A DNA stretch of 55,890 nucleotides, counting the filler, from Dugesia japonica (lineage: Eukaryota): assembly GCA_001938525.1 (NCBI GenBank). It is 4 parts of 4 records of this genome, joined end to end, with 100 filler letters (N's around TTAATTAATTAA, not from the genome) between each part and the next. Parts side by side here need not be neighbours in the genome. Positions count along the whole stretch, not along the records: positions 20,493 to 36,661 come from MQRL01588508.1; 3 more parts are not named here. One strand, 5' to 3'. Numbering within the stretch: the stretch's first letter is position 1; every line of letters starts with the position of its first letter. Below are positions 8,171 to 53,755 of the stretch, one piece after another. The position numbers were made by a program, and so were the translations under genes. The notes below the pieces were generated by a model. That model was not told the origin of the DNA and did not search any database. It saw only the letters and a list, made by a program, of their open reading frames with translations.

Positions 8171-11100
8171 ATGGACAGATACAATCTACGAAATACGACA
8201 AAGGATCAGAAATCTCCTTCGAAAAAAGTCACATCCAATCAAGACAAAAAGATCAGTATCGTTCAATCCGCAAAGCAGAAATCCATACGATAAATAATTT
8301 TTAAAGACGCCAGGAACTCCATCAACTTCAGCGAAATCAACAGACAATTTACAACAGACTAGCGAACCAGATTCAAATTTGATCGACAATTTGAAATATA
8401 ATTACAGTGTGATATCATTGAGCAAATCGAATTCAGGAAGATCAAGTCCTACGACATTAGAGCAATCAGAAGAAATCAGTGCAATTACAATTTATCGACC
8501 AGCAAGTCAGTTGGATAATTCCAGCAGTGACAGTTTAGAATCAAGTGACGACTCAAATATGTCAGAGCACGAGATAAATAATGTAGATCAAACAATAAAC
8601 GAATGCAGTACTAGTGTAATCGGACACAAAAGTAAACATGGAAATGGAAAACGGAGTTCAATGACGAAAATTTTTCGGGCATGCTAGAGAAATTAGAGAG
8701 TTTCATAGCGGCTTATGAGATTCATCGAAAGGCATGTAGATGGAGAGTAGAGCGGGCGGTAGATCGACTACCCATTTATTTAAAAGGATCGGCAAAAACG
8801 ATATATTGGAATAAAGCTAAATGGGTCAAAGATAAAATAAATACGTAGGAAGCATCGAAGAAGCTATTAGAAGACAATTTCAAACCATTGACATTACAAA
8901 GACAGGAAGTCCAAGATTTTACAGTGGGACGACAATTAAAAGACGAATCATTACAAGCTTATGCAACAGAACTATGGAGACTTGAAAAATTAGCGCTTGG
9001 AGAAGATGTGCCAGATAAAGTAATGAAGAAACCTTATTACGAAAGGACAAAATTCTAAAGCAGTCATATTCGAGGATGATGAATTTAACATTGGACGAAC
9101 GTTATCTACATCTGAGGGGAGACGAAAAACGGAGTATTCACCCATAACTAATCAAGATGTACAAAGAGTAGATATTAAAGAAAACCGTAGGAGTAGATTT
9201 TGGAGTTAAAATTAATTATCCAACGATAAATGGTGATTTAGTGACAACAATGCAAACAAAAGTGGTTAAAAGATTTGAGACGACAACTGTTGGTGAATTA
9301 AAAGATATTCTTAGTGAATTACCACTGGAACATTGATTGGAGCGATATAGAATAATATGTGATTACATGATAATTGAACGAGATAAATTGAATAACCGAG
9401 AAGTGCATTTAATTGAGTTTAAGTTAAGATCTGGAGAGATTACCGAATTAACGTTAGAATAAGATGATGGACAACCGAAAGATTTTGTGAAGCTATCAGT
9501 CAGTAAAATGCGAACAAAGATGATAAAAGGTTATCAAGAGGGAATAGACCAATTCGAGTATTTAAAGTTAGTACATGATGATCAAATTGCGTTGACAGCC
9601 GCAACAGGAAACGAAGTGGAACCGTGGAAAACGTTAAAGTGGAATTTAACAAAAATCAGATTAGTAATACTTAATCATTTTCATTATATTAAAAGTGGAG
9701 AAAGAAAAGAGGTAATTGATCGAATGAATCAACTAGGATTGATATTCGGAGAACATTTTAATGAAGCAGTGAGAGCAATAGTTTATTTAAAGGCATCACA
9801 AAACAAGAGGTGAAAGTGACAGTTCACTTTTCAGATGAATTGAGTAAAGAATTTGAAGTGAAGACGATGACAAAATGGGAGAAATTGATAAAAAAAATAC
9901 TAAGATATGTGAATAAACAATCGTTAATAGATAAAGAGAATATGCCAGTAGTAAAGAGAGAAGATATCATAATTTATTGTGGAGAAGAGATCACGGGATA
10001 TCTTGACGGTGATGCGGTGAAATTATCAGGTATATGACCAGGTCATATTATGAATATATACGTATTTGCAACAGGTGACGGAGAAAGGAATCCGTACACT
10101 GGAAGAGAAATCAGAGAGAATTTATGTCGAAAAACAATACAATATTATGTAAATAATGTGAATCCATTAATGCCATGGGGATTACAGGTACATCCCGAAG
10201 ACCTAAATTTTGAATTAACTGAAAGAGTTACAATGTTACAAACAGGACAAACATCGAATCGACAATACAGGGCAAATCAAGAGTTAAGCAGATCAGCAGA
10301 ATTATTAGTAATGAAGAATCGTAAAAAGAAAACAAATGAAGATGAGACAGATCCAGTAGCACAGTTCATATCATTAATCAACGAAGAGCAGATTTTGAGA
10401 GTAGATGTTCAGAACTTTCATGGATCAGATATTATTAAAAAGAGATTTATTAATAGACGAATTGAGAGATTTAACATTCGAAATATCGAGATATAAAGAG
10501 AAATTTACGTGGAGACCGAAGCAATTCAAACAGATTATAAAACGATGCCATGACAATGAGATAGATGAAATTGAACCAAGGCAGTATCATTTTTGAGTAA
10601 CAGATCTAGAAGGATACGAAACCAGGATATCTGGTCTTGCATACGAAACAATTGAGGAAATAAAGGAGAAAATACCGTTTGAACCACCGTATATATTGAC
10701 ATTAAATGACAAAGAATTGATAAGTGATGATATAATCGGAACATTAAACGTTAGGTGGAAGCAGACAGTTAAATTGTATATTAAACCGGAAGTGGGAAAG
10801 AGATTAATAAAAAAGATTATTGAACGGTAAAACGTTACCAACTGGAAAACAGATTCAACCGCAGATCACCAAGTATACAAAACCAATTGTAATCGACAGT
10901 GAAGAAGGTACGAGTAATACGACATTGAAGTCAACAAAGAGTAAATCAATGAAATCAAAATGACATATATCGTCAAGAGAAATTACAACAGAAGAAGATG
11001 ATGTTATTGAACAAGTATTTAGATTATCAAGTAACGATGATAAAGAGAAGTTACAGATAACTAGAATCGATCCAGAAACAATGAGACAAATGCCAATGAA

Positions 11101-11596
11101 AAAGAAAAGAGTAAAATTAAAGAGTAAATTTAATCCTAGAGAAGTAGACATTGATATTGAAGATGAATTATTTGTATTACCAAGAATACCAAATTTAACA
11201 AGACAAAAGTCACCTTCATTGATAGAATTCGAGCATAATGAGAGAATGCCGACTTCATTAGAATATGAATTTGGAAGAGAAAAAATATGTCTACCACTAG
11301 AATTTGAAGAAGAAATAACGACAACAGATAATGCTATCAAAACTACGCATAATCAAGAGGAAACGACAGATCAAGAAATATATCAGAGAATAATGGTTGA
11401 TGTGCAAACAGAAATTTAACGAAAGGCGTGAGGACTGCCAAGAGGATCTATTACGACAAAAGTAGCAACAAGTCGAAAACCAACGCAAGATGAACAATTA
11501 GCATCAGTATCGCAGGAAATTACGGAGGGATGCGAACCATCAGAATTATCAACGGAAAAGAGAATGCATCAAGTAGTATTAATATTATATCTGGAA
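8171..11596 (+). mobile_element. Decayed giant-Gypsy-like Gag polyprotein (~1100 codons) with a capsid domain followed by tandem ubiquitin/SUMO-like domains
   Basis: Starts MDRYNLRN, then a Ser-rich tract. Gag capsid at ~8670-9060: FIAAYEIHRKACRW..RAVDRLPIYLKGSAKTIY...RQLKDESLQAYATELWRL. Ubl-like segments at ~9199-9460, ~9813-10070 and ~10585-10785. Scattered stops and frameshifts; no pol in the window. Confidence 0.7.
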
Positions 11597-12005
11597 TTAC
11601 AAATTTGGATTGCAGCAACGCTTACGAATGGCATTTGTTACTGCTGCCCCCCGTTCTTCGTAGTTTGCAACATAAGATCCGCCAGAGCCTTGTTTTTTTG
11701 TGATTATCCGACGTTCAAAAGAATTTCCCCGCAAATTTCTAACATAGTTTTTATTGACATTGAATGCCTGACATAATTCTTTGACCGTTGAGTATTTTGG
11801 TTCTACCTTTCCTATCTTAAAAAGTAATATCTCATAATTTAATAATAAAATCATTTTTTCGTCTTCGGATAGAGTTGACATTTTAAAAGTCTTCCTAAAA
11901 TTTAACAAAAACAGCTATTATAGTTATAACCAAATTTAAATGACTTGGTGAAATTTGATATATTGATAAAATTTATAAATTCACCTTTTTATGGTTTGGA
12001 GGTAG
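11597..12005 (-). mobile_element. 5' end (TIR and N-terminal HTH) of a DD39D-like Tc1-mariner element
   Basis: TA followed by CTACCTCCAAACCATAAAAAGGTG resembles the Stowaway/DD39D TIR (CTCCCTCCGT...). ORF MSTLSEDEKMILL...GKVEPKYSTVKELCQAFNVNKNYVRNL...KKQGSGG resembles DD39D N-termini. Confidence 0.7.
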
Positions 12006-19093: not shown

Positions 19094-19781
19094 ATGAATA
19101 CAACAGTTGCACCATATGCTGTTAAAGAAGATAACAAAAAATTTGATGTAAATTTTAAATTTTGAATGATTTTTTTCTTTAAATAAAATTAATGATTTAA
19201 AATTTTTCACATTACATTTTGATGTGAAATTTACAGTTTTAATATTTCTTTTAAATTAGCTTCCGCGGAATAAATTATACATGCAACAGAAACCTAATAC
19301 AGTTAATAACAAGATCACTTATCGTCCATCACATGTTCCGAATAATTATTCGTCATCTATTAATCCATCGAAACCTCGTAATCAATATAATGCCGTTCCA
19401 ATCAATAACAATCAGCCCAGTCGCATTTATAATGGTCAACAAATCCAACAACCACATTTTAATACCCAACCTATTAATGGACCTAGAAATTATCCGAATG
19501 GAACCTCTGCTAGTCCAAGAGGTTCAGTATCAAACAGAGGTGCTTCATCAAATTCAGGATCTATGTCAGAACGAAATGGACCAACATTTGGAAAATACAA
19601 ATTAATTAGAGAAATTGGAAAAGGAAATTTTGCGAAAGTTAAATTAGCACAGCATTTAATCACTGGGAAAGAGGTGATCAAACTAGTTTACAGTGCAATC
19701 AATTATTTTGTTCTCTTATTTTTATAGGTTGCTGTAAAAATTATCGATAAAACAAAATTGAATGCTTCNGCTTTACAAAAG
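19094..19781 (+). CDS. MARK: MARK/PAR-1 family Ser/Thr kinase, first three coding exons (19094-19147, 19260-19673, 19728-19781); the rest is not in this contig
   Basis: Phase-0 GT-AG introns join [18 protein letters not shown] / [10 protein letters not shown]...[29 protein letters not shown] / [18 protein letters not shown]. These are MARK kinase subdomains I-II. Confidence 0.92.
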
Positions 19782-20492: not shown

Positions 20493-20824
20493 TTAATTTT
20501 AAAAAAATATATTAAATAAAAATCTTTTGTTCATTTCATTTTATATTTCATTCGTTTTAATTTATATCGAATTTTAAAAAAAATTCATTTCAATATAAAT
20601 TTAATATTATATTTTTATATTCAAATTATATTTAATTTAAAAAAAATACTTTACGAAGAAATTTAATATTCAATAATTTAAATTTTAGTCATTTCTATTA
20701 TATAGTTTATTTTCTTGATATATTTTTAAATATACTTTTGATTTTACTAAATTCCGTTTTACAAGACAAAAAATTTTAAATTTGTTCTTACAAAAAACTA
20801 TCTTATACTCGGTATACTCAGTTT

Positions 20825-21090
20825 GAGTAATTTTTAGGTGAATTTGGTTGATAATTTGCTAGTTGTTGTCAAATCAGGATAATTTTTAGGTATTATTGGT
20901 TAATTATTTAATTATTTAATCGGGAATGGTCAATTTGGGTAGTTTTAGGGCGATTTGTTGGTAAATTATTTACTCGGTATGGGCAAATTTGGTTAATTAT
21001 TTCTCACAAAGTAAGTTTTATGGGGAATTCGGTCAATTATTTCCTTGGGCTGGTCAGTTTGGGTTAAACTTTAAGGAAATTCATGGTAAA
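20825..21090. repeat. Degenerate ~55-nt tandem repeat, G/T-rich on the + strand
   Basis: Recurring unit AATTTTTAGG..ATTTGGTTAATTATTT...GGTCAATTTGGGT, about 5 copies. Confidence 0.5.
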
Positions 21091-22198
21091 AGTGGAATTT
21101 GTTTAAATTTTCGATTTTTTAAAGATAATTTAAAATTTGTTGTGGAAATCCGCGTGAACAACCCATTATATTTAAATGCTATAAAAATTTTAAAATTTCT
21201 TTTATGAATTTTTATAATTATCCAGACATACAAAATTTCGAAAATTTTTTAAAAACTTTTTTATCGAAATTTTTACATCAATCGATTCAGAATGATATTG
21301 AAATCATTTCTAGCTAAAAATAATTTATTCGAAAAATATTTTGTTTTCAAATTTAATTTTAAACTAGTCTATTCAACTAAAATTGTCAAAATTAATTTTG
21401 ACAAAGAGAAATTGAAAAAACTTAATCATAAATCCCGAGGATCCTTAACCGAAACAAATAAAAAATGATTTTTAAAATTTTCATCCAAATTTAATTATCC
21501 AAGTACTATTTAATAAAGAAATTTTTACTGATCAAGAATATATACGGTAGAAATTTTTAAATGAAATTTTATGGGAATCCGTGTGAACAACCCAAATTTT
21601 TGAAAAAAATTTCTAAATCTCAGATTTCAATGATTTTTATAATAACTGCTGAGAATTTTACGTAGATCATTTTCCTAATATTTTACAGAATTTTTACGAA
21701 AAAATTATTCTTTCCCAAATTTAATAATTAAAGTCTTCGATAGAGCATTATCGCTGATTCCAAATATGTTAATGTAAAATAATTAAAGATAATCCTTAAA
21801 GATAATTTTGTGGTGAAAAAATATCAAAATTCGGATTTCAGCTTTCAAAGCTCTGTGCGCAGATAACAGCTATAGACTCAAATTTAATATTATTGAACTC
21901 AGGAGTAGAGTGACTGAACAAAAGTAAGATATTGTCTCGACAAAAATGCTTCCTAACTTAAATATACAGCTGTCCTACCAGATTTGACAATTTTTTTCTA
22001 AAAATCAAAACTCAAAATTTAATTAAATTAATATAATTCGATAGAGAATGTTGCGCTCATAGTGAATAACAAAGTTAAAAATCAACAAACATTATAGATA
22101 AAATTTATATAGAAAAACAAACACTTAATATCGTAGTCTCCACCCAGGAACATTAAAATAAAAGAAAAAAAAATTAATTTTTACAAATATATTTTTCA

Positions 22199-22584
22199 TT
22201 AGTCTGTAAATGGAATGTTATATTTTTCAACATTTCTCATATATCTTTAAATGCGTTGTATCGACAAAAATGACATCAGTCTTGGGTCGCATATATAGAA
22301 ATCTAATTAATAAAAGTAGAAATCGTATAATATATCTTCCATGTTGAGTTTTGTCCCGCTTTCAACCTTCAACCAATATTCCTTTTGAGGCCATAATTTG
22401 AATTTTTCTTTTAAATCTGACAAAAACGTTTCCAAGCTACCTATTATGTAACCTAATAAAGAAGAATAAAAGTTATTAATAATTTAAAATTCTTACCAGT
22501 ATTGACTATATCATCATTTTTAAAACGTCTATTAATATATCTATATAATAGATCTATATCTTCAATTTTTATTCCTTCCACAAT
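22199..22584 (-). pseudogene. Small two-exon orphan gene with in-frame stops
   Basis: A canonical 44-nt gtaaga...ttattag intron (22453-22496) joins VEGIKIEDIDLLYRYINRRFKNDDIVNT / GYIIGSLETFLSDLKEKFKLWPQKEYWLKVE in frame. Confidence 0.5.
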
Positions 22585-24088
22585 TTAAAAATTTGAAAAG
22601 TGAACAATAAGTACAATCACAAGATTTGAAAAAACTTAACTGTAGAGATCACATAACACACAACACATCACAAATACAATAGATAATCAGATCTCCGACT
22701 GTTAATTCTCAGAGTAACTATCAATTATCAATCAATCCTCAACGAACTCAAATTCAAAACAATCAGCAAACATTGTGTCAATAAAATTATATTACAATTT
22801 GATCTAAACATTTATTTCACATTCTGTATTATAATCTTGATCCAAACATTAATTTTGATCTAGAAATTNNNNNNNNNNNNNNNNNNNNNNNNNNNNNNNN
22901 NNNNNNNNNNNNNNNNNNNNNNNNNNNNNTTATTTTTGGTGAAATAATAAAGTTAATTGATTTTGTTGAATTAACACAGGTGCAAATTTTATGCAAAAAA
23001 TAATATTAATATATTAATATTAATATTAAAATATTAATATTAATTAATATTTCATTTATCTTGCACATATTTATTATTTTATTTTTATTTTTGGTGAAAT
23101 AATAAAGTTAATTGATTTTGTTGAATTAACACAGGTGCAAATTTTATGCAAAAAATAAACAGGTGAAACAGAACATATATGGATTTCACTAATAATAATA
23201 AAAAAACCAAATTTTTAAGTAATTTTAAAAAAAAAATTTGAAATATATTCTTGAAAATTTTGTAAATATTTTGAAAAACTTTAAGTAATTTTGAATGATG
23301 CTTATATGCGCGTATGTTGTATTCAATTCAGTATAAATACTGATTGTATTTGTTATTTTTTCAGTCATTTTATTTACAGAGACACTGACCTCTCAGGGAA
23401 GCTGTACTCTGATAAATTAAATTACTGCCTATAAGGTTGAATAGTTAAGCTATATTATACTATATACCAAAAATAAAGGATATTAAAAAGGTGTTTGATT
23501 ATTTATTTATTTATTTTACAAAGACACTACATTACCCTATTTATACATTTTCAGTAAAATATTGATTATATAATATTGTATCTACACATACACAGGGATA
23601 AAATTAACGCCCGTAAAATTACAAACCAAGTATTCATTTTTATTAGTCTCAAATACGAACCATAAATCTCTTTGTTGAGTTTAAATACCCAACATAACTA
23701 TTACAATTCAAATCAAAATTAATATAATTTAATTTAAAATAATTTCAATAAGAATGTTCTAGAATAAATTGTTTAAACGTATCAATTTAATTAATTAATA
23801 CACACCTGTTTAAAAACCCATAAAAACTGAATATTTAATTCATTATTCATTATTTCAACTGAAGATGATATAAATTCTTACCAAGTAAAACGCATCTACA
23901 CTAGTATTAACGTGTGAAAAATCAAGAAATTACTTCAACTATGAGATGGTTTTCTTTAGCAGCACAATCAATTATAATTTTCTAGTACTATTTGATTTAC
24001 TAATTACTTTATCAATACTTTTTTATTTAGAACCATGAAAGTAAAACCTTGTCTTTACTATTTTTTCATATCTGAAAACAGTGACAAT

Positions 24089-24267
24089 TGTTGGGGTTCC
24101 ACCTGAGTTGGGTGACACAAAAAAGGTGGCTGGGGAAAAGACAGCCCTTAGGGGAACCCTTTCAAGAATTTACCCTACCGTCCCTGTGGTAGGTCTTCAG
24201 TTTACTGCGGTTGTCCTCACTCTTAATGGGGGTTGCACACCAGTAAACCTTTAGTTCGGGTCCTACA
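24089..24267. other. GC-rich, multi-hairpin 179-nt segment with TG...CA ends (LTR-like or structured RNA)
   Basis: Stems GGGGTTCC/GGAACCCT, CCACCT/AGGTGG, GGCTG/CAGCC, CCTACC/GGTAGG and GTTTACTG/CAGTAAAC. No TSD, PBS or PPT found. Confidence 0.55.
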
Positions 24268-24334
24268 TACTTAATTTAAGAAAATTAAAATTCTTTATAA
24301 TTCTAATTAAAATATTTATTCGGCAGTAACACAA

Positions 24335-24717
24335 TTAGAGCAAATCTAGCGCCTCCGGATCTAGCCATTGGTCCGAGGTAGTGACAATGAAGTTAAAAGC
24401 TGCAATATCGTCATCTTCATCCCACTGAGTTGTGTTTGGATTGCCAAGCTGACGGGATAAGTCAGCAATATATTGTTTTAAAAACTCGATTTTCCGCTGT
24501 AATAAAAGTTTGGTTTCGGATTCCAACGCCTTTGTGTGTGCGGCAAGGTCGCTTTGCTTTTTTATAACAATGTTTAGCTTCTTAATGAGTCAATTGCGTT
24601 GTTTTAAATGCTTTAGTAGAGCCCTATCCGCTTTCCTTTTCAAATGACGTTCGAGGAGTAGTCGACGTAAGATGCGGTGGCATCTTCTAATACTATCTGG
24701 GAATTGAATTCTAGGCA
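24335..24717 (-). CDS. Orphan cassette ORF-D (basic helical protein with an acidic/aromatic tail), one internal stop
   Basis: Acceptor tattttag, then PRIQFPDSIRRCHRILRRLLLERH...KIEFLKQYIADL...DDDIAAFNFI...WLD. Paralog at 28965-29314. Confidence 0.65.
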
Positions 24718-24733
24718 CTAAAATACAAGAACA

Positions 24734-25191
24734 TCAACCGAATANNNNNNNNNNNNNNNNNNNNNNNNNNNNNNNNNNNNNNNNNNNNNNNNNNNNNNNN
24801 NNNNNNNNNNNNNNNNNNNNNNNNNNNNNNNNNNNNNNNNNNNNNNNNNNNNNNNNNNNNNNNNNNNNNNNNNNNNNNNNNNNNNNNNNNNNNNNNNNNN
24901 NNNNNNNNNNNNNNNCCAGTTTATTTTCACGGTCATGGCTGGACCGGATAATCTCCGCGAAAGATTCGACTTGGGCTTTCCAGGCCCGTACTTGTTCTTG
25001 TACGAGTCTCATTTCTTCCCGAATGTTGGTACATTTAGTCTTGTACCGTTTCACCTTAGCATTCGCTGTCGCCACGTCGGCTTCCCAACGCNNNNNNNNN
25101 NNNNNNNNNNNNNNNNNNGTCATCTCTATATCTTCGCTATCCTCGCGAATTTTCTTGGTTGGGGCTGAAGGGCGATTTAGTGATGAGTGCA
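24734..25191 (-). CDS. Orphan cassette ORF-C (coiled coil), C-terminus lies in an N gap
   Basis: Acceptor ctttttatag, then HSSLNRPSAPTKKIRE...REEMRLVQEQVRAWKAQVESFAEIIRSSHDRENKL. Paralog at ~29372-29590. Confidence 0.65.
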
Positions 25192-25417
25192 CTATAAAAA
25201 GACAAAGTCCGATTAATACTCATTAAATTGATATATAAGTAGGTTATGAAAACCATAATGAAATTATTATCCAAGCCAAAGTTAAAAGAAAACCACAAAA
25301 AATAACGCCAATTCAATTTGCAAATACAAAATACAAGGAAGAAGATTACAAGTCCTCCCTGGACACATTTTCATCATTTATATTGCCAAGTGAATTCCGC
25401 ACACTCCATAAGTTATC

Positions 25418-25837
25418 CTAAATGAATGAAGAGAGTTGCGAGTAAGGTGGTGGCTGGGTCGTGGTAAGGCCAACTACAGTTGGGCTTTCCGACCAAACCC
25501 GTTCGACGCGTGGCATTAGTGGAGATGTAGTATTGAGATGGGGTACAGATGGATATCGTGGTTGGTCTCTCCTCGGGCCACACCAATGATAATATGCTGC
25601 TCGATCAGCCGCGTCCCAACTTCGGTCCTCCGCTGCTTGCTCAGGAGGCACGTTAGAGCGTTCTATCAACACTCCTGCGNCCTGGTTNTATGGGTTTCGA
25701 AATTTTTTGAAAGTGGTTAAGCCAGATCGAGTGTCTAAGGTCACATCCCAGACGTAATCCATTAAAAATCTATAATAAGTGAACATTAACCAGGCGACAA
25801 TAAACAAAATTAAGACGTGGATTCTCTCATAAAACAT
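25418..25837 (-). CDS. Orphan cassette ORF-B: 139-aa protein with an N-terminal hydrophobic/TM segment and a C-terminal PPPY motif
   Basis: IHVLILFIVAWLMFTYY at the N-terminus and QPPPYSQL at 25442-25453. The frame is open and GC is elevated. Confidence 0.65.
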   Translation of the reverse strand: MFYERIHVLILFIVAWLMFTYYRFLMDYVWDVTLDTRSGLTTFKKFRNPXNQXAGVLIERSNVPPEQAAEDRSWDAADRAAYYHWCGPRRDQPRYPSVPHLNTTSPLMPRVERVWSESPTVVGLTTTQPPPYSQLSSFI

Positions 25838-25896
25838 TTAGTTTATTGGTTAATCAAATTAAGATAAAGATAATTCACACTAGACAATTATGTAAG

Positions 25897-26082
25897 TCAG
25901 TCCTCCTCATCTATATCGACGGGAGCAACGAACGGAATTAGCTCGACGAAACATTGAAGATCCGTTTCNTCAGGGTGCTCCACCGCTCCGTAGGTCAAAT
26001 AATGGGCAATTAATTGCTTGAGCCTAGCAGATCGCCGTTGTCTCTTAATCCATCTTAACATGTTGCGTAACTTTGCCGGCAT
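25897..26082 (-). CDS. Orphan cassette ORF-A: 61 aa, basic N-terminus and acidic C-terminus
   Basis: Acceptor ttttctgttttag lies 3 nt before the ATG. MPAKLRNMLRWIKRQRRSARLK...DIDEED. Confidence 0.55.
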   Translation of the reverse strand: MPAKLRNMLRWIKRQRRSARLKQLIAHYLTYGAVEHPXETDLQCFVELIPFVAPVDIDEED

Positions 26083-28718
26083 TGGCTAAAACAGAAAATA
26101 TTACGACATTGATAATTAGCATTTTATATTTGCCTAAAGCGAGACGTAATAATAATACCTAGAAATCTAACCGGATGACGTATCCTCTCCCTTTTAGATA
26201 TAAAAAATAATAGCGATGGCCGTTGGAGTAAAATTATAATTGGTTGACTGCTCGTAGTAATTCACCGGATTTAAGCAGATCCCTGTATTTAATAATCAAC
26301 TATATATTAACCTTGTCATTATAATATGTCTAAAAGAGGATTTCATAAATGAAACTTTCCAACGAATGCTTAGCGCTAGTGCACGTGATAATGATAATAA
26401 TAGCCGAAGTAATAACCATCATCGTGATATTACTAATATCAGTCAACGCTGTTATAGACCTAGTGATCAATCATAATAATAAAAATGACAAAAAGAATGA
26501 TTTTGATAATAACAAAATATAATCATAATAATTTATCTTCAGATCATCATTATGAAGAATAAAACGAAGTAATATTGTAATTAATCATTTTTAGATTCCA
26601 TACATTATAGCTATCAGTTACTTAGCCAAGTTTGCCGAAAATAGTTCCTGTAGGGTTTGAACCGAGAGTGTGATTGGGTTTTACTTGGCAGGCAAAAACT
26701 TATCTCATAAATAAGATTGATTAATGCCTTTACATAACGATATGCTCACGAGTCTGGATATTTTCCATGGAGTCAAATAACGCCTATGTATCATGTTCAT
26801 GTCGTAATTCGATGCTAAAGCGATAGTGATTTATCTATGATTTATAAAATTCAAATTATAAATATTTTATTCTCAACGTTGGTCTGGAACCACCGCTCTA
26901 TAACTAAAACAGTATTATTCAGATTTTATCATTTAAAAATTGAGCGTAAGTTGTTGTCATGATTATTGCCAAGGTCATCTCTAAGCAAGGAATATTTCTA
27001 CATGAGAGTGTGTGCGATTTTATTTTACAAACATTACATCTAACACACATTCTTATATCGACATTGCAATCCTGACAAGCAGGTACTGCGGATTTTTGAT
27101 TGTCTCAATTTTAACTTATGTCGGTGACAACAATGCAACATAAACTTCTGTTTACAGGTGAAATTATATGCCGGATGAATCGATGGAAAAGCATTGATGG
27201 AAATCATTGTTGGCAACAATTTGGATAAGTAATTTAATTTTTTCGGTTTTGAGATTTAACTCCTAGTTCAGCCTATTGAAGTAGTTAATTTTACAGCTAA
27301 GCTCGATGGTGATAAAATGCAGCCTAACATTAGTCGGTAAATAGTTTTTTGGACAATGGATTATAATTAATGAATTTTTTTACAAGAACTATGGTGGATT
27401 GTACAGGTAACTACTTTGATTGTTAGGCAAAATTTCTGCTTTATGAATAACTAATCTTAGAACCATTTCCTTTTTGTGTTTGTAAATATTAATTATAATA
27501 AACTGAGACTTTTGTTCATTTTCATCTAATATTTAGTAAGGACTGCTGCATATAAAGTTAAATTGTCATTAATTAACTTAGTAAATGATTTATCGAATAA
27601 AATACTATAATTACTGATACCGGATTTCGCTTTACAATATCTAATTGGGTTAAAAACAAGAATTTTAAGTTAACAATAAACAATCATAACTATATTATCT
27701 GAATACATAGTGAATCAGTTACCCAGAAGTAAATAAGCTTTCATAGAAACTAATTCTTTTATTTTATCATTTAAATTAAAACATGGATAATTTTATTGTA
27801 ATCATTTATTATAACTAATTAATAACAACAAAAATAATAATTACTTATATACGATTCCACAAAATACGGAATAAACTGATTTGATTCGAATCTGTCTGCA
27901 ACGGGTACTCGGTAAAATATTGCCTACTAGCTTTGGAATGGAAAATTTTTTGAATTTGGCTTCCTTATTTCTTAAGTTCTGAAAAAGTAATTAATCGTGG
28001 TCCGTTTAACAATTATCCCACTTTGATACTATTTTTAACTATATTGCCGCCAATTGCGCGATAACTGATATCTAATTATTTTTCTTTCGGTCAAATTAAA
28101 ATGGTCCTCGAAGATTCTTTTTAACGGTACGTGACACTTTATAAGGTTGAATTTAGAATTTATTGTTGTTTTTTCGTCTAAAACCGGGGCTCCTTTTATA
28201 GGATTTTCTTGACACCCCAACTTGTTCTTGATTTGCCGTTTATTTTTAAATTTGAATATCGTGATNNNNNNNNNNNNNNNNNNNNNNNNNNNNNNNNNNN
28301 NTAGACTTTTCTGTAAATCTGTTGGTGGTTATTTTTAGAGTGTCAGGTGAGTTTCTGTTCTTTGTTTTATTTTAAATTACTGGATGCTCATTGGGTAAAA
28401 CTTAGAATCCTTACCATGCCCCTTCAGAAGGTGGTACGTTTTTTCTTTTTTGGCTTTTAGTTGCACCTGATTATTTTCTTTTCAATTTTTCCTGTCCGAA
28501 TTTCCTCCGACTTCCTGGACCGAAGTTATCTGTAAAAAACAGATTTTTGTCTAATTTTGTTTCTTTTTTTTTCTTCAAAATTAATTATTTCTTGTTATTT
28601 CTTTTTATTTATTAAATTTTTCTTAATTTCTAATCATAAGCGGCTTCCATTTTTCCATATCCCTCTTTGATTTAATTTCATTTCTTTTCGTTATTGCTTC
28701 TAGGCTTTGGTTTCCATC

Positions 28719-29917
28719 ATGGTTGATCCGCAAATGTCCAATGATGATTTATTTTCTGCCTTAGTGAGTGTTTCATCCCAACACAATGATCAAAATACTC
28801 TCAATGAACTATTCGTAAGAATCAATGAACGTATGAAAATTGAAGATGCAACATTTTTTATATTTATATAAGATAATGTTCAAGAAAGTAAGTCAATGAT
28901 TACAGTTGAAATTATAGGTTACAAGAAATGGGAAGATATAGTAAAACCAATATGGAAAGTCGAATCAACTCAGCGAGTCTAACCATTCAGCGGGCACGTC
29001 GTTCATAAAGTCGAACGCGGCCTTGTCATCATCATTGTTATAACTCGTCCAAGTGTAGATTTCATATCGTGCGGTCAGGTCTGCAATATACTGAGTGAGG
29101 AAATTGACCTTATTGAAAAGGCGATTAGCAGTTCTATTAGCTATCTCCAACTGCTTTTTTTAAACTATCTGTAATTTTTTAATTAAGTGGTTCTTTTGGG
29201 AAATGTGACGGAGCAGGGTCCGTTCACATCGTTTGGTGTAATGCCGTTCAAGAAGAAATTTTTGGAGAAACTTGTGGCACCATTGTTAACTGCTTGGGAG
29301 ACGAATTTTTGGCACTATACAAAGATATTGAATGAAGAATTAATCGTTAAATGTTATAATAAATTAAGGAAGACAGTTTAATACCAAAAATTTGTATTCA
29401 TTTGGTACAATTCGAATTTGCGTTTGGGTGGCCTTATCTATCATTAAGGGTTCTTCAGGAATGTGCTTACGCATGTTTAATAGATCTATTACCAGTTTAT
29501 TTTCATGGTCATAGAGAGACCGGATTACCTCAGCGAAGGACTCGAGCTGTCTCTTCTATATTCGCTCTTGATCGTGCGATGCTCGGCCTCAAGCCTATAG
29601 TAGTTCTAGATATGTATATCAGCCCTCAAGTAGTTGAAACCACTATACAAAATTATCAAGGAATGACCTTACTCGATGAAAAAGTATGTCCACGAGAAAA
29701 AATCAAATATTTTAACCAACAAACAACTGGTTATCATGACACTTCAATTATCAACTTAGCAGATGCATGCCCAATCATCATTAAAGCTCGACAAATGTTC
29801 TACGGAAAGATAGTCATTGGTTACGACATAGGTAAAAAATTATCCAGTTTGTATATAGACCATCGCCACATTATCGGATTTAGTAGATTTACAAAAAAAG
29901 TAGAAAATTTCTATTGA
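28719..29917 (+). pseudogene. Degenerate REX4/ISG20-like DEDDh exonuclease gene split by a 626-nt antisense insert (parts 28719-28964 and 29591-29917)
   Basis: KPIVVLDMYISPQVVETTIQNYQGMTLLDEKVCPREKIKYFNQQTTG...FYGKIVIGYDI follows the REX4 pattern IVALDCEM..VSIVNY.G..LYD.YVKP...SG...GRILVGH. The catalytic E and the ExoII/III residues are not retained. Confidence 0.6.
28965..29590 (-). mobile_element. Second, diverged partial copy of the orphan cassette (ORF-C 3' part and ORF-D)
   Basis: QLESFAEVIRSLYDHENKLVIDLLNMRKHIPEEPLMIDKATQTQ and PKIRLPSS*QWCHKFLQKFLLERH...KVNFLTQYIADL...DDDKAAFDF...WLD. The splice acceptor is in the same position as in copy 1. Confidence 0.8.
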
Positions 29918-31806
29918 TTTTTAATAAATACAAAATATTTTTATTTATAATTTATTATTTTTATTTGTAATCATATCGATTTTTAACATATGTCAATAAG
30001 TTTTAGTAAATATCAGTGTTTTGTGTACGTGGGTGACAGCTAAAAATTTTGTATAAATAGGTTTGATTTTCAGTAGCTGATCACCCAACTTTTAAACATC
30101 TCAAGTGAAGTAGAAGTTTACCTGAACTGACACTTACGAGATNAAAATACTACCGCCGTATCATATTAAATTGATTTATCAATAAAAATTTTCTAAAAGT
30201 AATTAGTTCATATTTTATTAAATAACTAACTATATAGTATATTTATATTGATATCTTTCATATATATTAACGATATTAGGATTAAATAAGGAAACTATAA
30301 GTCTATTATATATGATTCGGATTGTTTAAGGACACATTAAAAGACTGATAAACTCACGCAATTGCTGATTTGCTTTGGCAACAATCCCCAAAGCATCTCA
30401 ACAATAATATTGCAGGGATATATTTAGACAGTTCCTATAACAATTAAATAACAAAATAGATGAGAAAAATTTTATTAAGTAATTTACGATACATTAATAA
30501 CAATTTCATAGGATTTTTATGAAATCGAAATGCATACTTACTAGATAAAAAATTCTTTTCCGCAACGAGAATATGACTAATTTCTAAGAACTGTTTATAG
30601 ATTTAACTGGTTTTACTTCTATTAAAGTTCAACTAAGACTTGGAAATTTTGAATTAAAATGTTGACTAAATAATTTGATAAAATGTCAAAATTTTAGGGT
30701 GGTTTAATAGCATTCCTGATGCACCCCACTCTATTCTGGTTGCTGGTCTATTTTATTAAAAAAAATTATTAATTACTATTGTAATTTGAATTAGGTTCCA
30801 ATTTTGTAAATAGTATCCATTTATTGTAAACAATTTATTTAATATAATTAGTTTTAAATTGCATCAATGTAAGTAGAATCAAGAATAATTAAAAAAAACA
30901 TTAATAATTAAAAAATATTTAAATAAAATTGTTGGAGAAAACATAAGCCAACCCTAAATACACACGCATGCACGCATCTACAACACATAACAAGACACAA
31001 CATATTCGAATTCGAACCAAGTCAATCAAATCAACTCAAAAATGATTCCATCGAATCCAAAATTATTTGGATATTTGACATCATATTTATGTGATTACTT
31101 GACATAAATTCTTATTTTAATATGTTGACATTATATTATTAATTTTATTATGTTGTTATTAATTTTATTTTATTATGTTATTAATTTTAATTTATTATTT
31201 TATTGTATTCAATTTTATTTTTGCATTATAGATTTTCGGATCTATTTGTATAATTTTACATTTAATTCATGAATTATATTAAGAAATCAATTTTTACTTG
31301 ATTTGTTTGTTTTGAATTCTTGGGTTTATTTATTATTGAAAGAGACAGTTGAAGGAAATAATAATTGATTTTGAATTCATTTCAATCGTTATGTGGAAAC
31401 TATAAAATAAATTCTGTATTTTAAAAAAATTATTTACTTATTTTGTGTTCATTGATTGCATGTTCAAAAGAGTATAAATACACTCACAGAACACATTTTT
31501 ATCACCCTCGAAAAAACTCGTCTAATAGTTTTTAACTTGTATAGTTAAACAACTAAGAGTAAAAATCATAACTTGTGCACATATTTTTATTGACAATATA
31601 AATTTAAAAGTAATAATTTTATTTATTATTTCATAGGAGCTACTATATAGCATATTTATAATTATCGATTTATCTTTAGAAAATATATTAAGATCATAAG
31701 GTGAAGCATAAAACTCGATATATTGGATTGTTAAATTAATAAATTTATATCTAAACTCGCCCGTTGTTGATTTATTTTGGCTAAAATCCCTAAATATCTC
31801 AACAAT

Positions 31807-32472
31807 ATAATATTTACAACTACTAATTTCAAGTCACAATTTACCTATTTTATATTATATTATTTTTTATATATATGGACACCACACATCATATAACATG
31901 TAGTATTTTGTCTTGTTGAATTCTCTCAATTTAATCCATATAGGTAATTTATTAATTTAATTTAATGTATTTATTTTTAGACTGTCAATGCAATCCAGCT
32001 CAAATATAATCCAGAAAATTATCAAAAGTTATAAAAATGAAATAAGTTTTAATATATGTTGTCATTTTAATTGTTACAATTTTGTAAATAGTATCCATTT
32101 AATGTAAACAGATTTATTTAATGTAATTAGTTTCAAATTGCATCAATGTAAGTAGAATCAATAATAAATAAAAGAAACATTAATAATTAAAAAATATTTA
32201 CATAAGATAATATTTACAACTACTAGTTTCAAGTCAAAATTTACCTATTTTATATTATATTATTTTTTATACATATGGACACCACACATTATATAACATG
32301 TAGTATTTTGTCTTGGTGAATTCTCTCAATTCAATCTATATAGATAATTTATTATTATAATTTAATGTATTTATTTTTAGACTGTCAATGCAATCCAGCT
32401 CAAATATGATCCAGAAAATTATCAAAATTTATAAAGATAAAATAAGTTATAATAAGAAATATTGTCATTTGA
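31807..32472 (+). repeat. Tandem duplication (~265 nt x2) of a small spliced gene start; the spacer duplicates 30798-30925
   Basis: 31807-32070 is similar to 32207-32472 (ATGGACACCACAC...ttttagACTGTCAATGCAATCCAGC). 32490-32580 is similar to 32688-32770. Confidence 0.8.
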
Positions 32473-33239
32473 ATTGTGTTTTGAACACAGTAGTAATAAG
32501 AATTATCAAGCGAGACGCGTTCACCGTATGCCCAGATGATTACCACTATCCTTATTATGCCGATTATGCTTTATGCTGTGTGGTTATATTCGGGTAAATA
32601 AATAGCTGAAAATTACAATTCAATCATAATTTGCTAGTTGGCAGAATGTTTTATAATTAGCAGAAATTTTGAAGCAATTAAATTAAAGTAGTAATAAGAT
32701 TAATCAAGCGAGGCGTTTTCACTGTGTGCCAAGATGATGACCAGTATACTGATGATGCTTTATGCTGTTTTATGCTTCGTGGGGTAAATTTATCGATTTC
32801 ATTGCTTGAATATTTGATATAATAATAGGTAGTGCTTTCATAAAATTTTGTATATTTTGTATTTTTATAGTTTATTTTACTGATTTGATTACAAGCAATT
32901 TTTATAAATTATACTTAATAACTCTTAACATATAACTCACAATATGTATTAATTTTAATGGATTTTAAATTCTTTAGTTAAGATGATATGATTCATCTGC
33001 AAAATTTTTACTTTTACAATGGTTTTTTAAGTTGTGATAGTTCAGTGTAAAAATAATGTTAGTTCTTACTAGTTAGTATCATAATGATTAAGTTTAGCAA
33101 TTTTATACGATGTTTAGAATGGAAATTGATAATATTATGGGTTTAAATTGAGTTATAGTAATAACTTAGAATGTTCGAGAAAAACAGGACTCTTGACATA
33201 AGGCAATCTAAATCGTTAACTTTAATAGGCTGTAAAGAA

Positions 33240-34040
33240 ATATGAACCAACTTACAAGATATTAAGTCATTTTGATTTTTTAACTGAAGTGCAAAGAACA
33301 TTTCGAAGTACTTATGGAACACAACTCGCATATCGTGAATCAATTTATATATTGAAAGTTGAGACCGAGAATTTCTAATGAAATGTTTGATCGTATTCGT
33401 CAAAGTTTTTCCAGTAATCATAATAATAAACAATAAACCACATTCCACAGTTATTCGTAAACTCCGTCATTTTTATCCGTATGAAATTCAACTTTTTCGT
33501 AAGTTTCATCGGAATGACAAGATTACTCGCGCTAATTTTGAGTGGATATGCTGGAAACCATATCAGCTGCAAGTCCCTTTACATAGATCCAAAAAAATGT
33601 CGTCAAGCCCACAAGAAAAAAACACTTTCATTCTATAAGATGGTGCACCGCGGTATGAGCCTTTTGGTTTGTACCTTCCTCAATAACTGGTTAACTGGAA
33701 TATGGATGAATGGATGTCTCCATTGCTTGACCATCACTGGATTTTTTTAATCTGGGGTTATATAAAAGACCGCATGTATTCAAGCAAAATAGAAGTTTGG
33801 AACATTTATAGACTAGAATTACAGATACCATTGCAATAGTCACTTCGGAAATGTGCAAAACACCTGGTCTGATATTGAGAATAGGCTTGACATGCTACAT
33901 ACAACAAATTGCTCCTGTGTTAAAATGTACTGATAATAAAGAAGGGGCTACGAATTTGGAACTTTCTGCTATATTGTCTTGTAAATAAATTATGATTATA
34001 ATTATTATTATTGTATTATTCCTTTATAAGCACCATGATT
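33240..34040 (+). mobile_element. Internally deleted rosa/DD41D-like Tc1-mariner remnant
   Basis: HFYPYEIQL, *DGAP, TFLNN..WMNG, IWGYIKDRMY, RITDTIAIVTSEM and NRLDML are motifs typical of this lineage. Confidence 0.65.
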
Positions 34041-42983: not shown

Positions 42984-43892
42984 ATGATTCAGAGAGACAA
43001 AATCAAAGAGACAGAAGAAATTAAAGAATTTGTGAAACAGGATTTGTCAACCTGGTTTGAAAAATGGGAAAATGATCATCCTAATGCAGACAATGGCCTT
43101 ATAATGGCTGGAAATACTGACCAATTCACTGATGACTCGATACTTTCATTTAGAAAGTTGATGATCAGATATAATATGATTTATATATTTGGCAAAGAAA
43201 GTAACATTCATGCGAATATTCGATTAACTATGAATAAACAGTTACAAGTTCAAATTAACAGACAAACCACCTTAAATGTTGATCATGAATCCGTGTTCTA
43301 TCCTGTCTGCAATAATTTCGAATGCGGAAAAATATTTAATATCTATCCAGATTTTGTTCTCCATATCAGTATTTCTCCTGATGGATTAGATTGCCTTGAA
43401 AATATTCGTATTAATTCACTGATTGCTGGAGAAGTTCTGTATTCGAACGGGACATTTGAATCTTTGTTATTGAGAGGCATTCTGTTATTGGGTCAATCTA
43501 CAAGATTCCAATATGCCATATTAATTCAAATATCAAAGAGAAATCTNNNNNNNNNNNNNNNNNNNNNNNNNNNNNNNNNNNNNNNNNNNNNNNNNNNNNN
43601 NNNNNNNNNNNNNNNNNNNNNNNNNNNNNNNNNNNNNNNNNNNNNNNNNNNNNNNNNNNNNNNNNNNNNNNNNNNNNNNNNNNNNNNNNNNNNNNNNNNN
43701 NNNNNNNNNNNNNNNNNNNNNNNNNNNNNNNNNNNNNNNNNNNAAATTACAGACATTAACAATGCTGATAATTTGTCATTCAATCTTAACTTAACACATC
43801 CGTTCACCGGACAACAATTCAATATTCCCATTGTTATCACATCTAATTTGATTAGAAACTGGCATGTGATATGGCAACAAGAAAATGTATAA
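42984..43892 (+). CDS. Intronless orphan ORF (~300 aa including a gap), possibly Uma2/PD-(D/E)XK-like fold
   Basis: 188 open codons precede the gap in very AT-rich DNA, the C-terminal part is open, and AATAAA follows the stop. The fold call rests only on DHESVFYP...YPDFVLHISIS...L. Confidence 0.6.
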   Translation: MIQRDKIKETEEIKEFVKQDLSTWFEKWENDHPNADNGLIMAGNTDQFTDDSILSFRKLMIRYNMIYIFGKESNIHANIRLTMNKQLQVQINRQTTLNVDHESVFYPVCNNFECGKIFNIYPDFVLHISISPDGLDCLENIRINSLIAGEVLYSNGTFESLLLRGILLLGQSTRFQYAILIQISKRNXXXXXXXXXXXXXXXXXXXXXXXXXXXXXXXXXXXXXXXXXXXXXXXXXXXXXXXXXXXXXXXXXXXITDINNADNLSFNLNLTHPFTGQQFNIPIVITSNLIRNWHVIWQQENV

Positions 43893-46281: not shown

Positions 46282-49105
46282 AAAAGTTTGTAATATATCG
46301 TCACCTTCATCCATATCATCCATTATATTATTATTAAACAATTTTTCTTCTTCATGTCTCTATGTCTCTACTCCAGATGTTTGAATTCTTTCAAATACTT
46401 CTGATAGAATGCAATCAATTTCCTTCCAATTTTTGCAAAGATTAGAATATCATCGATATAAAATACAAAGCCTTTAAATACAATACCTGACAAAATTGTA
46501 CGCATTAACTTTTAAAACGTAGCTGAAGCGGTTGATAGGCCGAATCGCATGCAATTATAGCAGTACTGGCCTCTCTTTGTAAAAAAAGAGGTTTTTATTT
46601 TATCCTTCTCTTCTAGTTTGACTTGATAATACGCTTGGCCTATATCTAGTGCCGAGAATATTGTACACTCACTAAGATGATCGAATAACATTTGAGGATC
46701 TGGCATAGGAAACGAAAACTTATCAGTTGTTTTATTCAATATTCTGAAATCCTGACACATACGAATAGCTCCATTATTTTTGTTAACAATCACCATAAAT
46801 GAGTTTTATGGACTACTGCATTCTTTTATGATGTCGCTTTTGACAAGTGTTTCAATAATCTCATCAATCTTGCGTTCTAGATACATTAGTTGTCGTCTTA
46901 GCTGTTGTAAGACATGATTCCCCGTTGTTTGAATAGGATGTTTAACTAAGTGTGTTTTACCCAGATCAAACGTATGTGCCATGAATATCGAGGCAAAACG
47001 CGTTAACAACTTTTTCAAGGTTTTTTTCATCTCTTGGTTTGAAAACGTTCATAGTAAATCTTAAACGATTCTCATCAGAAACATCACACATTACATTATC
47101 TGATTTGATTAATCCAATCATCTTTAATTGAATATTGAAAACTTTGAACATGTCTATTCCACTGATAAACTCCTGGCTTATACTCTGTACTACCACCAAT
47201 TTGACATTTTCGTTCATATTATGGTACTCAATTTTCACTTTTCCGACGCCTACGCGTTTAACGGCTTCCTTCAAAAATGCTCCTCTCAATTTTATCTCTG
47301 AATTTTTAAATGGAAACGAACCACATCTTTTCCAAGCATTCATATCCATTACTGATATCGATGCTTCTGTGTTCCGTAACATTTTTTCACCTCTGTCTTT
47401 CACTTTAACCACACTCTAGATTCTTCCATTGCTCTACACATACGTTTAAATTTCGATTTTGATTTGTTCTTTCTGTATTGACTCCACAGACGAAATTGAA
47501 ACAGTGAAGTCCTCCCGTTTAAATAGTTCACATCATGCTATACTTCATCCAATTCATCGCAAATTACATTTATTGCATCGTTTTCATTAGTTTCATCCGC
47601 AATAAATCTAACATTGTTTCTGTGGTGATATTTCTCAAGCAGTCTACAACTTCTCAAATTATGACCCGATTTTCCACAAATTAAACAACAATCTTTTAGA
47701 TGAGAATTATTACAGAAATATCCCATTAAACCACAAAAAAAACATACTGGGTTTCAAAATCTCTTTTTTTGGAGGTAAAAAACCTTTGGATTGATTATAC
47801 AGCTTTTTGGCAATGAACTTCATGAATGTCGTCGGCGAATTTCTCTGGATTTGCTTTTGGTATTGAATTTGATAATTTCCTTTTGAATCATTAACAACAG
47901 AAGCTGGCCTTGATGTCAGTGACTTTTCCAAAATTTGCATGTAATTCCAACCGTTGATTTTTCCTGTAGCGGTAATTACCTGCTGCCACTTCACAATATG
48001 ATAATTTATTGACTGATAACGTTTTCTTAATGTCATCGTTTTTTTTCATAATTTGGATAACTGTCGCATATCATCATCATTCAAATCTGGTTTCAGTGTA
48101 AAGGCTTTTTTAAATCTTGATATTTGACTCTTTTTTGAATTATTTGCTTCACAATTTCTTCCATTGATAATCCGGATTTGAATATTTCCTTCAAAGCTCT
48201 TGTAACTCATAATTGAAAGCTTTCATATCTTTCATCAGTTTTTTGACTGATTATACTGAAATCATTCGTAAAAAACATTTATTTTTGACGAATTTTAATT
48301 TAAACCAATCTCTTTTTGATTTGTCGTCCATTTTGGTTCGTGCTTTGCAAGCTAACAATAAATCCTTAGCGTCGTCATCTAATATGAAATCAAAAGCTGA
48401 CATGAAATCGAAGTTATTTGTGGCTGGGAACGTTTCAATCACGCAATCGGATCTTAATCATAATTTCCTGAGAATTTTGTTATTCTTGGAATAACCGTTC
48501 TCGCAATTCTTTTGGTAAAGCTTTCTAAATTCTTTTTGCTTCTACTGCTTAATTTCTTGTTATTCAGTTGACATGGCAGTGGTCACCAGTAAAATCAGTA
48601 ATAACAGACATCTTAAAATTTGAAAATATATTTCTTATTTACACTTTAATATTTAAACAAAACTTCTAGGTCATATCAATTTCCTACTACCAACAACGAC
48701 GATAAGTATAGATACATAAAAACACTAGTCTTCCATATGGACATTGTAGTTTGACCACAATAAATAAGACTTTGGATGAACAATAGAATGTACAAAAAAT
48801 GCATCTATTTGAAATTATTGAACGTTTATTTCATTATTTAGCAATCAAACAAAAAATTCAAACAAACTCCATGTATTCGAACTGGATTTTATTAAACAGA
48901 CTTATATTGCACTGACTTTATTAACTGTAATAAATATGTAATAAATAATTTTAATGTGATTAGTCTTTTGATTTATTATTTTATTGTTAACATTGTGAAC
49001 GATTAATGCTAATGTAAATATTACCGTAGAGCAACTAATATTAATGGAATTGGGAACATCTAATGTTGGGAGCATTCAGTGCTGGCTTAAACATTTGCCA
49101 GTACA
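46282..49105 (-). mobile_element. Gypsy LTR retrotransposon 5' half: LTR (~49105-48589), PBS, gag with two CCHC knuckles, protease and RT (all disrupted)
   Basis: LTR start TGTACTGG and PBS TGGTGACC. Protein motifs CFFCGLMGYF, CLICGKSGHNLRSC, RMCQDFRILN, ALDIGQAYYQ, MRFGLSTASATF and FYIDDILIF. Confidence 0.92.
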
Positions 49106-52219: not shown

Positions 52220-52600
52220 TATTTATTGATAATCACATTAACATTGTTTATACTGGCTTTTTTGAGCCATTTAATACAATATTGTCCACATAGAAATGTC
52301 AATGAATTCTGATACATAAATTGATTGTATTCGACACGTTGTTACATACGCTCTGATTTTGTTACTAGCAATGGTGGATAAAACATACCCATCGGATCAA
52401 ATACACGAATAATATTTGATTTGACATGAATAGCAATCCAATGCTCACCATAAAAATTCGAGGTATGTGTATTGATAACATAACATCCGTTTTGTAAAAG
52501 GTCCGGTAAACGTTCTAGTGGATACACTCCTTCAAATCGTTTGCTGCCCAAATCTCGTTTCAATATTGTTTCAATCTGGAAAGTACTATCAATCAATAAA
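52220..52600 (-). pseudogene. Maverick adenain-like cysteine protease
   Basis: FEGVYP..LP, YVINTH, GEHWIAI, FDPMG and YQNSLTFLCGQYC; one internal stop. Confidence 0.9.
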
Positions 52601-52667
52601 TTCCTTTTATAAAAAAAATCAATACATACTTCATACTTTGCAATACACACATACATGCATGTATTGT

Positions 52668-53724: not shown

Positions 53725-53755
53725 TCCAAAATAAATAAAATTGTAATCAAATTGT

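Follow-up and report, generated by a model that had tools for sequence, protein, structure and literature searches.

A gene for a small membrane protein in Dugesia japonica, very probably element-borne and decayed, and its LPPY-bearing sibling copies

The cassette and its reading frames

The window (the whole stretch of Dugesia japonica DNA that was analysed, 55,890 nucleotides including filler) is AT-rich and contains remnants of mariner-, pogo-, hAT-, Penelope-, Gypsy- and Polinton-like elements, the classes being assigned partly by our own reading. An intronless island at 24000-26300, with a GC content of 40% versus 23% and 29% on either side, carries on its minus strand, head-to-tail, an ORF of 61 aa, a membrane-protein ORF and a coiled-coil-like ORF, CC1. 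The features of this cassette and of its surroundings are the following:

24115-24240, no strand assigned: short non-coding segment, whose summed depth in run X1 exceeds that of the ORF bins about 60- to 400-fold
24335-25219, minus strand: downstream coiled-coil-like ORF CC1, multicopy, with 2 stops in 227 readable codons
25346-25417, minus strand: continuation of the membrane-protein frame, residues 141-163, with synonymous variation to about residue 150 and mixed variation at 151-155
25418-25420, minus strand: stop codon private to this copy, as judged from sibling contigs
25418-25837, minus strand: ORF of this copy, 139 aa, read as a decayed gene for a small, predicted single-pass membrane protein, multicopy and under selection
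25433-25453, minus strand: residues 129-135, a PY motif overlapped by YxxL; this copy reads PPPYSQL and all listed siblings LPPY
25553-25762, minus strand: conserved region, residues 26-95, of no known family, with Trp, Tyr, Pro and Arg positions common with the database homologue P0004 (alignment and model)
25760-25822, minus strand: predicted transmembrane helix or signal anchor, residues 6-26 (Kyte-Doolittle 1.87-1.99; modelled helix at residues 2-27)
25897-26082, minus strand: upstream 61-aa ORF with an acidic end and no Pfam match; an AATAAA at 25847 lies just before the membrane-protein ATG
28961-29600, minus strand: CC2, a decayed paralogue of CC1, with 8 stops in 213 codons and blocks of 44% and 58% identity with CC1
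29579-29917, plus strand: weak remnant of a DEDDh 3'-5' exonuclease-like ORF, head-to-head with CC2; ISG20L2, ISG20 and SDN1 are the top three of four PDB matches (E 0.29-0.64)

The membrane-protein ORF runs from ATG to stop and contains single N bases at 25680 and 25688. When the surrounding 1 kb was shuffled 1000 times, an ORF of equal or greater length appeared twice, so chance is an unlikely source of the frame. The sequence-only reading had described an N-terminal hydrophobic stretch, a disordered Pro/Arg-rich tail and a terminal QPPPYSQL. The ORF, the hydrophobic stretch and the motif were all present where it had placed them, but the C-terminal position of the motif turned out to be specific to this copy. 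The hydrophobic stretch covers residues 8-26 (mean Kyte-Doolittle value of 1.99), and a single membrane span, as in the PY-motif NEDD4 adaptors, is predicted for this copy, the one to which the prediction applies. The AlphaFold model contained a helix at residues 2-27, with a pLDDT of about 92 over residues 1-20; overall it was of low confidence (pLDDT 54.5, pTM 0.26) and confident for the helix only, and the beta-hairpin at residues 29-46 and the short helices that it proposes are low-confidence elements. Residues 25-139 are composed of 11% Pro and 9% Arg, and the pLDDT was below 50 for residues 82-139. QPPPYSQL occupies residues 128-135 (QPPPY 128-132) and is followed by SSFI; the ORF protein has no PSAP/PTAP or YPxL motif. 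PPxY occurred in 6.5% and [LP]PxY in 12% of 20000 protein shuffles, so the motif by itself is weak evidence and could be due to chance.

CC1 gave a weak match to ADIP in Pfam, below the cutoff (E 0.042), and 1039 candidates in the word-indexed protein search, none with E of 0.1 or less among the near lengths that it covers. In the part most conserved between CC1 and CC2 (24916-24996), the contig depth was far above the rest and RNA reads of related families matched. CC2, which is probably an older copy or family, lies about 4 kb from the cassette beside the DEDDh exonuclease-like remnant, for which Pfam returned no match. The non-coding segment at 24115-24240 was also matched by RNA reads of more distant families and is possibly a cis element of the family. 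A hammerhead or other structured RNA at 24080-24270 was considered and found to be unsupported (folding z of +1.4, no meaningful Rfam match). Further upstream, a hydrophobic minus-strand frame at 26051-26590, chosen by eye, contained 6 stops in 180 codons versus 13.7 expected (P = 0.015) and is possibly a further decayed membrane-protein gene. A Cys-rich minus-strand fragment at about 26990-27100, with two CxxC pairs, is possibly a zinc-finger remnant.

Sibling copies, selection and transcription

Part of the segment 25120-26700 was contained in 20 of the 24 listed sequencing runs (10 studies), none of which contained half of its words; no RNA run was found among the listed runs containing part of it. 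Run X1, compared with 23800-25679, yielded 4981 contigs, mostly 90-95% alike; they covered 28 of 30 bins, all except the two that correspond to the N gap. The number and cover of these contigs indicate that the cassette belongs to a repeat family with many diverged members. Sibling copies were compared over 25340-25535 in four runs, X1, X2, X3 and X10 (the last labelled as a second organism, organism B, and from the same study as X1), using contigs of at least 80% identity and 40 of the 50 differences from the window.

The middle base of codon 129 (25452) differed from the window in all 96 listed contigs (24 from X1, 9 from X10, 35 from X2 and 28 from X3), at 100% of the depth in each run, which changes the codon to Leu; frequent sibling changes at 25451 and 25453 leave it Leu. 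Among the differences listed, those at P130 and P131 were synonymous only, and none affected Y132 or L135. The family motif is therefore LPPY(SQL), an LPxY-type PY motif, and the PPxY is a private mutation or a base-call error of this copy. LPPY was present in every listed sibling contig of the four runs at the identity threshold of at least 80%, as expected of a conserved L/PPxY of NEDD4 adaptors, while the canonical PPxY that a viral late domain should keep family-wide was replaced by Leu at its first Pro in 96 of 96. A PPxY late domain is therefore not a feature of the family.

The terminal position of the motif fared no better. The stop at 25418-25420 was missing from 100%, 100%, 99.4% and 99.2% of the sibling depth in the four runs, and synonymous variation persisted beyond it (25412, 25397 and 25394). 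The next in-frame stop, at 25346-25348, showed no difference among those listed. Since the stop after residue 139 is not shared, the motif is internal to a protein of about 163 aa, and 25346-25348 is the likely natural end of the frame. Both the eye-catching motif and its terminal position thus came from the decay of a single copy, and the sibling copies read differently. The frame ends in REDL at residue 163, a possible ER-retrieval-like end to which we gave no weight. An in-frame hydrophobic stretch at residues 169-197, reaching a Kyte-Doolittle value of 2.44, suggested a second transmembrane segment. We did not adopt it, since it lies beyond two further stops, neither of them among the listed sibling differences, and since siblings have a 1-base insertion at 25287 (as read from 40 of 278 differences).

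Third codon positions accounted for 22 of the 26 listed variable sites in 25388-25535, i.e., residues 101-150 (p = 1e-7 versus one third), and for 26 of 35 over the whole of 25340-25535 (p = 9e-7); among the differences listed for the four runs over the latter segment, there were no indels within the frame. This bias indicates purifying selection on the frame in the lineage that gave rise to the copies. Below 25388 (residues 151-155), six of the nine listed differences were non-synonymous, so the constraint drops there. Conservation extended over all of residues 114-150, and selection therefore does not single out LPPY. The exceptions came from X10: a nonsense change at codon 133 in one contig and Q134H in two; one X10 contig was about 80% alike over 186 nt. 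Together, the 4981 X1 contigs on 23800-25679 and the purifying selection in four runs bear out the earlier claim that the ORF is encoded by a mobile element. Judged from sequence, the ORF is an unnamed accessory gene under selection for a predicted membrane protein, and it is very probably a genuine element-borne gene that has decayed in this copy.

To assess transcription, about 25% of one raw RNA run and about 6% of another were used, and reads of at least 85% identity were collected from them on 23800-25679. The 72 and 11 reads obtained were piled on short conserved segments and were mostly less than 90% alike, so they derive from related families. No read in either run fell on residues 54-139, the half of the ORF that was examined, at this threshold. 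The subfamily looks silent in these RNA samples at 85% identity or more, and more distant active families are possible. The low, flat contig cover in run X9 was rejected as a sign of expression, X9 being only guessed to be RNA.

Homologues and the carrier element

A full HMMER search of 1.84 billion representatives returned two matches, P0004 and P0005. P0004, an unnamed protein of 94 aa from a 512-bp ENA contig (E 3e-15), aligned without gaps to about residues 26-114 at 39% identity; W30, NP at 48-49, W74-D75 and W85-x-GPRR are common to both proteins. Since residues 26-113 match P0004, the tail is not simply disordered; its Pro/Arg-rich composition and low pLDDT agree with the earlier description, and the gap-free alignment does not. 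As called, P0004 begins opposite M26 and stops short of the motif, and thus lacks both the transmembrane segment and the PY motif. It points to a conserved region after the predicted helix, and on the helix and the PY motif it is silent, or negative if complete. P0005 was discarded as a spurious match to a repeat-rich protein of 917 aa with a G/W/C-rich repeat.

The other searches added no further relatives. The word-indexed protein search, which covers near lengths only, gave 13 candidates for the ORF, none with E of 1 or less, and with a two-sequence alignment as the query it recovered P0004 alone (1 of 96). Pfam contained no match for the ORF, P0004 or CC2, the PDB sequence search with the ORF reached E 0.8 at best, and the ESM Atlas gave no usable match for residues 54-139 or P0004, a result that shows neither novelty nor absence. 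Foldseek against viral structures, run with the low-confidence model, yielded no match at E of 0.001 or less (best E 0.2), and no related loci were found in viral and metagenome contigs by protein or by DNA motif. Across Pfam, PDB and the Atlas, no sequence homology to a named adaptor family was detected, and the one homologue is unnamed.

Burro giant Gypsy elements have long LTRs and a Gag-Env-Pol polyprotein of about 4900 aa, Terminon/Penelope-like elements have an Athena RT and a 3' hammerhead ribozyme, and Polintons/Mavericks have TIRs, pPolB, integrase and capsid genes. Several single-pass proteins whose function is not known are reportedly encoded by Burro-1 (Grohme, 2018). Giant retroelements of invertebrates are known to carry accessory membrane ORFs, and to our knowledge almost none of these ORFs has a proposed mechanism. 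No core transposition gene was linked to the cassette within the window, and no long direct repeat pair flanked it among the 20 largest repeat families listed. Pfam searches of all six frames of 20500-23500 and 25900-33700 gave no match to Gag, capsid or Env. Terminon/Penelope features were likewise absent, with no hammerhead by Rfam or by the core pattern with stem II and no RT near the cassette, which is possibly an element fragment only. Gypsy PR/RT remnants at 46515-47415 lie 17 kb from the cassette, and a Polinton-like integrase-bearing remnant (about 51000-55890) lies 25 kb from it, both distances being measured along the window and neither linkage being established. The latter remnant, on the minus strand and Polinton/Maverick-like, contains an rve integrase and pieces that, by our own reading, resemble a cysteine protease and capsid proteins.

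Because no core gene is linked to the cassette, the nature of the carrier is a matter of judgement. A giant Gypsy/Burro-type LTR element is the leading candidate, although it falls a little short of being probable; a Polinton-like carrier is unlikely, as is one of unknown type, and a Penelope/Terminon-like carrier is slightly less likely still. The available text of PMC5408684 describes coiled-coil, TM and DEDD exonuclease accessory ORFs in rotifer LTR elements and Terminons, and that of PMC6431247 reports that planarian Burro carries accessory ORFs, as well as domains with links to ubiquitination and apoptosis. In the accessible parts of these papers, Burro/GYPSM1, the ORF3 of rotifer Vesta/Juno and Terminons resemble the present locus in that small ORFs of the coiled-coil, TM and DEDD-exonuclease-like types occur together in an element of high copy number, the host being an AT-rich invertebrate. 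The cassette here differs from those elements in that neither gag-pol nor an LTR pair nor a hammerhead was found linked to it. The same excerpts of PMC6431247 and PMC5408684 describe no PY motif in such accessory ORFs, whereas one is present in the sibling ORFs. One Burro1 domain is reported, second-hand, to act on host cells (PMC13465017, excerpt), and the parts of PMC8532177, PMC10175614 and PMC11410931 that were available hold no accessory-ORF detail.

The missing core gene, together with the lack of RNA reads on residues 54-139, would also suit a chance ORF or a host gene unrelated to any mobile element. Such an origin is very unlikely in view of the third-position bias (p = 1e-7), the homologue at E 3e-15, the hundreds of divergent contigs per run and the intronless cassette of 40% GC set between flanks of 23-29%. 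The chance-ORF reading is largely refuted.

Candidate functions of the membrane protein

A class of short single-pass proteins has been described whose L/PPxY motifs bind the WW domains of Nedd4 and which redirect membrane proteins (PMC5578492, excerpt). Since the sibling sequence fits this layout, an element-borne adaptor is favoured, and our tentative choice, held at somewhat less than even confidence, is an accessory single-pass protein that would act as a Commissureless/PRRG-like NEDD4 adaptor. The helix would serve as the membrane anchor and leave the tail in the cytosol, the conserved region at residues 26-95 would bind a partner, and LPPY would bind a WW domain of a host NEDD4-family ligase; endosomal sorting may be a further function, contributed by the overlapping YxxL. 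The protein would thereby route a membrane or defence protein of the host, and itself along with it, to the lysosome, in the manner of Commissureless, PRRG4 and herpesvirus UL56/UL42/U24. The hijacking of a NEDD4 ligase, one branch of the sequence-only reading, is plausible because the PY-type LPPY is retained in the siblings; what did not survive of that branch is the canonical, terminal PPxY, which is private to this copy and not terminal in the family.

As far as the accessible part of PMC5578492 goes, the protein resembles Commissureless, PRRG4, Rcr1 and Shisa in being short, with one predicted span near the N-terminus and no apparent cleaved signal. The essential motif of Comm is given there as an extended LPxY, GLPSYDEAL, and the sibling LPPYSQL is, like LPSYDEAL, an LPxY with a hydrophobic residue three positions on. 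There is one PY motif here versus usually two or more in Comm, PRRG4, Rcr1 and Shisa, according to the same excerpt. The protein further differs from these four in that no sequence similarity to them was detected, in having no Gla or Cys-rich domain and in being mobile-element-encoded, and its ligase binding is putative. Herpesvirus membrane proteins act as NEDD4 adaptors (PMC5849660, excerpt), and UL56, ORF0, UL42 and U24 are, like the present protein, small membrane proteins that are encoded by a genetic parasite and have a PY-type motif (PMC5849660 and PMC7199950, excerpts). UL42, in the text available, has a C-terminal TM and two PPxY motifs, whereas the TM here is N-terminal and the motif a single LPxY; no homology was found. 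A literature search by title and the beginning of the abstract found no PY-motif accessory protein of a retroelement or transposon, and an earlier annotation as an unknown single-pass Burro ORF is quite possible.

The orientation of the tail is where the adaptor reading meets its main rival, given the ambiguous flanking charges and the conservation of all of residues 114-150. A lone Arg, R23, follows the helix; after it come D27, D31 and D35, all three acidic and all ahead of residue 36, and the next basic cluster is at residues 44-46. With such charges, a luminal position of the tail is conceivable. The product would then be a signal-anchored (type II) or secreted accessory protein with a luminal or extracellular tail, whose LPPY is incidental and never meets a WW domain. 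The hydrophobic core at the very N-terminus, the conservation throughout residues 114-150, a single NxT sequon at residue 102 and the chance background of 6-12% for the motif all agree with this arrangement. Set against it is the tail itself, in which there is one Cys, Pro, Ser and Thr abound and a YxxL overlaps the PY motif; tails on the cytosolic side are typically built in this way. Moreover, Comm and PRRG1/3 have no signal sequences and yet have cytosolic PY tails (PMC5578492, excerpt). We regard a luminal tail as rather unlikely.

That a mobile element keeps both a predicted membrane anchor and a PY-type motif under selection would also fit a late-domain egress protein that recruits NEDD4/ESCRT for the Env-independent release of element particles. 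Orbivirus NS3, a late-domain membrane protein that releases a non-enveloped virus, has two membrane spans and both PSAP and PPxY. The present protein resembles NS3 as a small membrane protein with a PY-type motif, and differs from it in its single span, in the LPxY of the family and in the absence of PSAP. Late domains are usually part of a self-assembling structural protein, which speaks against egress, as do the absence of the canonical PPxY from the siblings, of PSAP/PTAP and YPxL from the protein and of Gag, capsid or Env matches from the six frames of 20500-23500 and 25900-33700. The proposal that the Burro elements of planarians are integrated proviruses would suit egress; these elements also contain an Env-like region, which a Burro-like carrier would thus already have (PMC6431247, excerpt). 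On balance, egress is improbable, and LPPY would more likely recruit a host ubiquitin ligase than drive particle budding.

FAST fusogens have an acylated small ectodomain and a polybasic juxtamembrane tail. A FAST-like minimal cell-cell fusogen spreading the element through syncytia would likewise be small and single-pass with a Pro-rich tail, and small TM ORFs of rotifer LTR elements have been suggested to be fusogenic (PMC5408684, section 3.2, excerpt). Here, however, the N-terminal segment has only about 5-7 residues and no Gly2 for myristoylation, the helix is followed by a single Arg and no adjoining polybasic stretch (the next basic cluster being that at residues 44-46), and the low-confidence model found no viral fold (best E 0.2), so that fusion is highly improbable. 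Nothing that was tested points to budding, particle release or cell fusion, and the Env-independent particle release or cell-to-cell spread proposed from the sequence alone was not borne out.

Taken as a whole, the proposal of an undescribed protein family comprising a giant-element-borne Commissureless-like adaptor or NS3-like egress factor, with LPPYxxL commandeering NEDD4/ESCRT, is doubtful. If true, the element would strip the host of a surface or defence protein, or would leave the cell without a conventional envelope. The strong purifying selection and the short, testable motif offer a handle on how an element manipulates host membrane traffic.

Elsewhere in the window, several long ORF pieces at 8300-11800 (plus strand) show a strong skew in G and A, gave no convincing match in Pfam and may be another unclassified element. 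A plus-strand ORF of 302 codons, without a Pfam match, spans an N gap at 42984-43892. At 19260-19760 (plus strand) there are kinase exons, separated by a short intron and coding for an Asn/Gln-rich N-terminus, with no later exon found within the window; we take them to be MARK/PAR-1-like.
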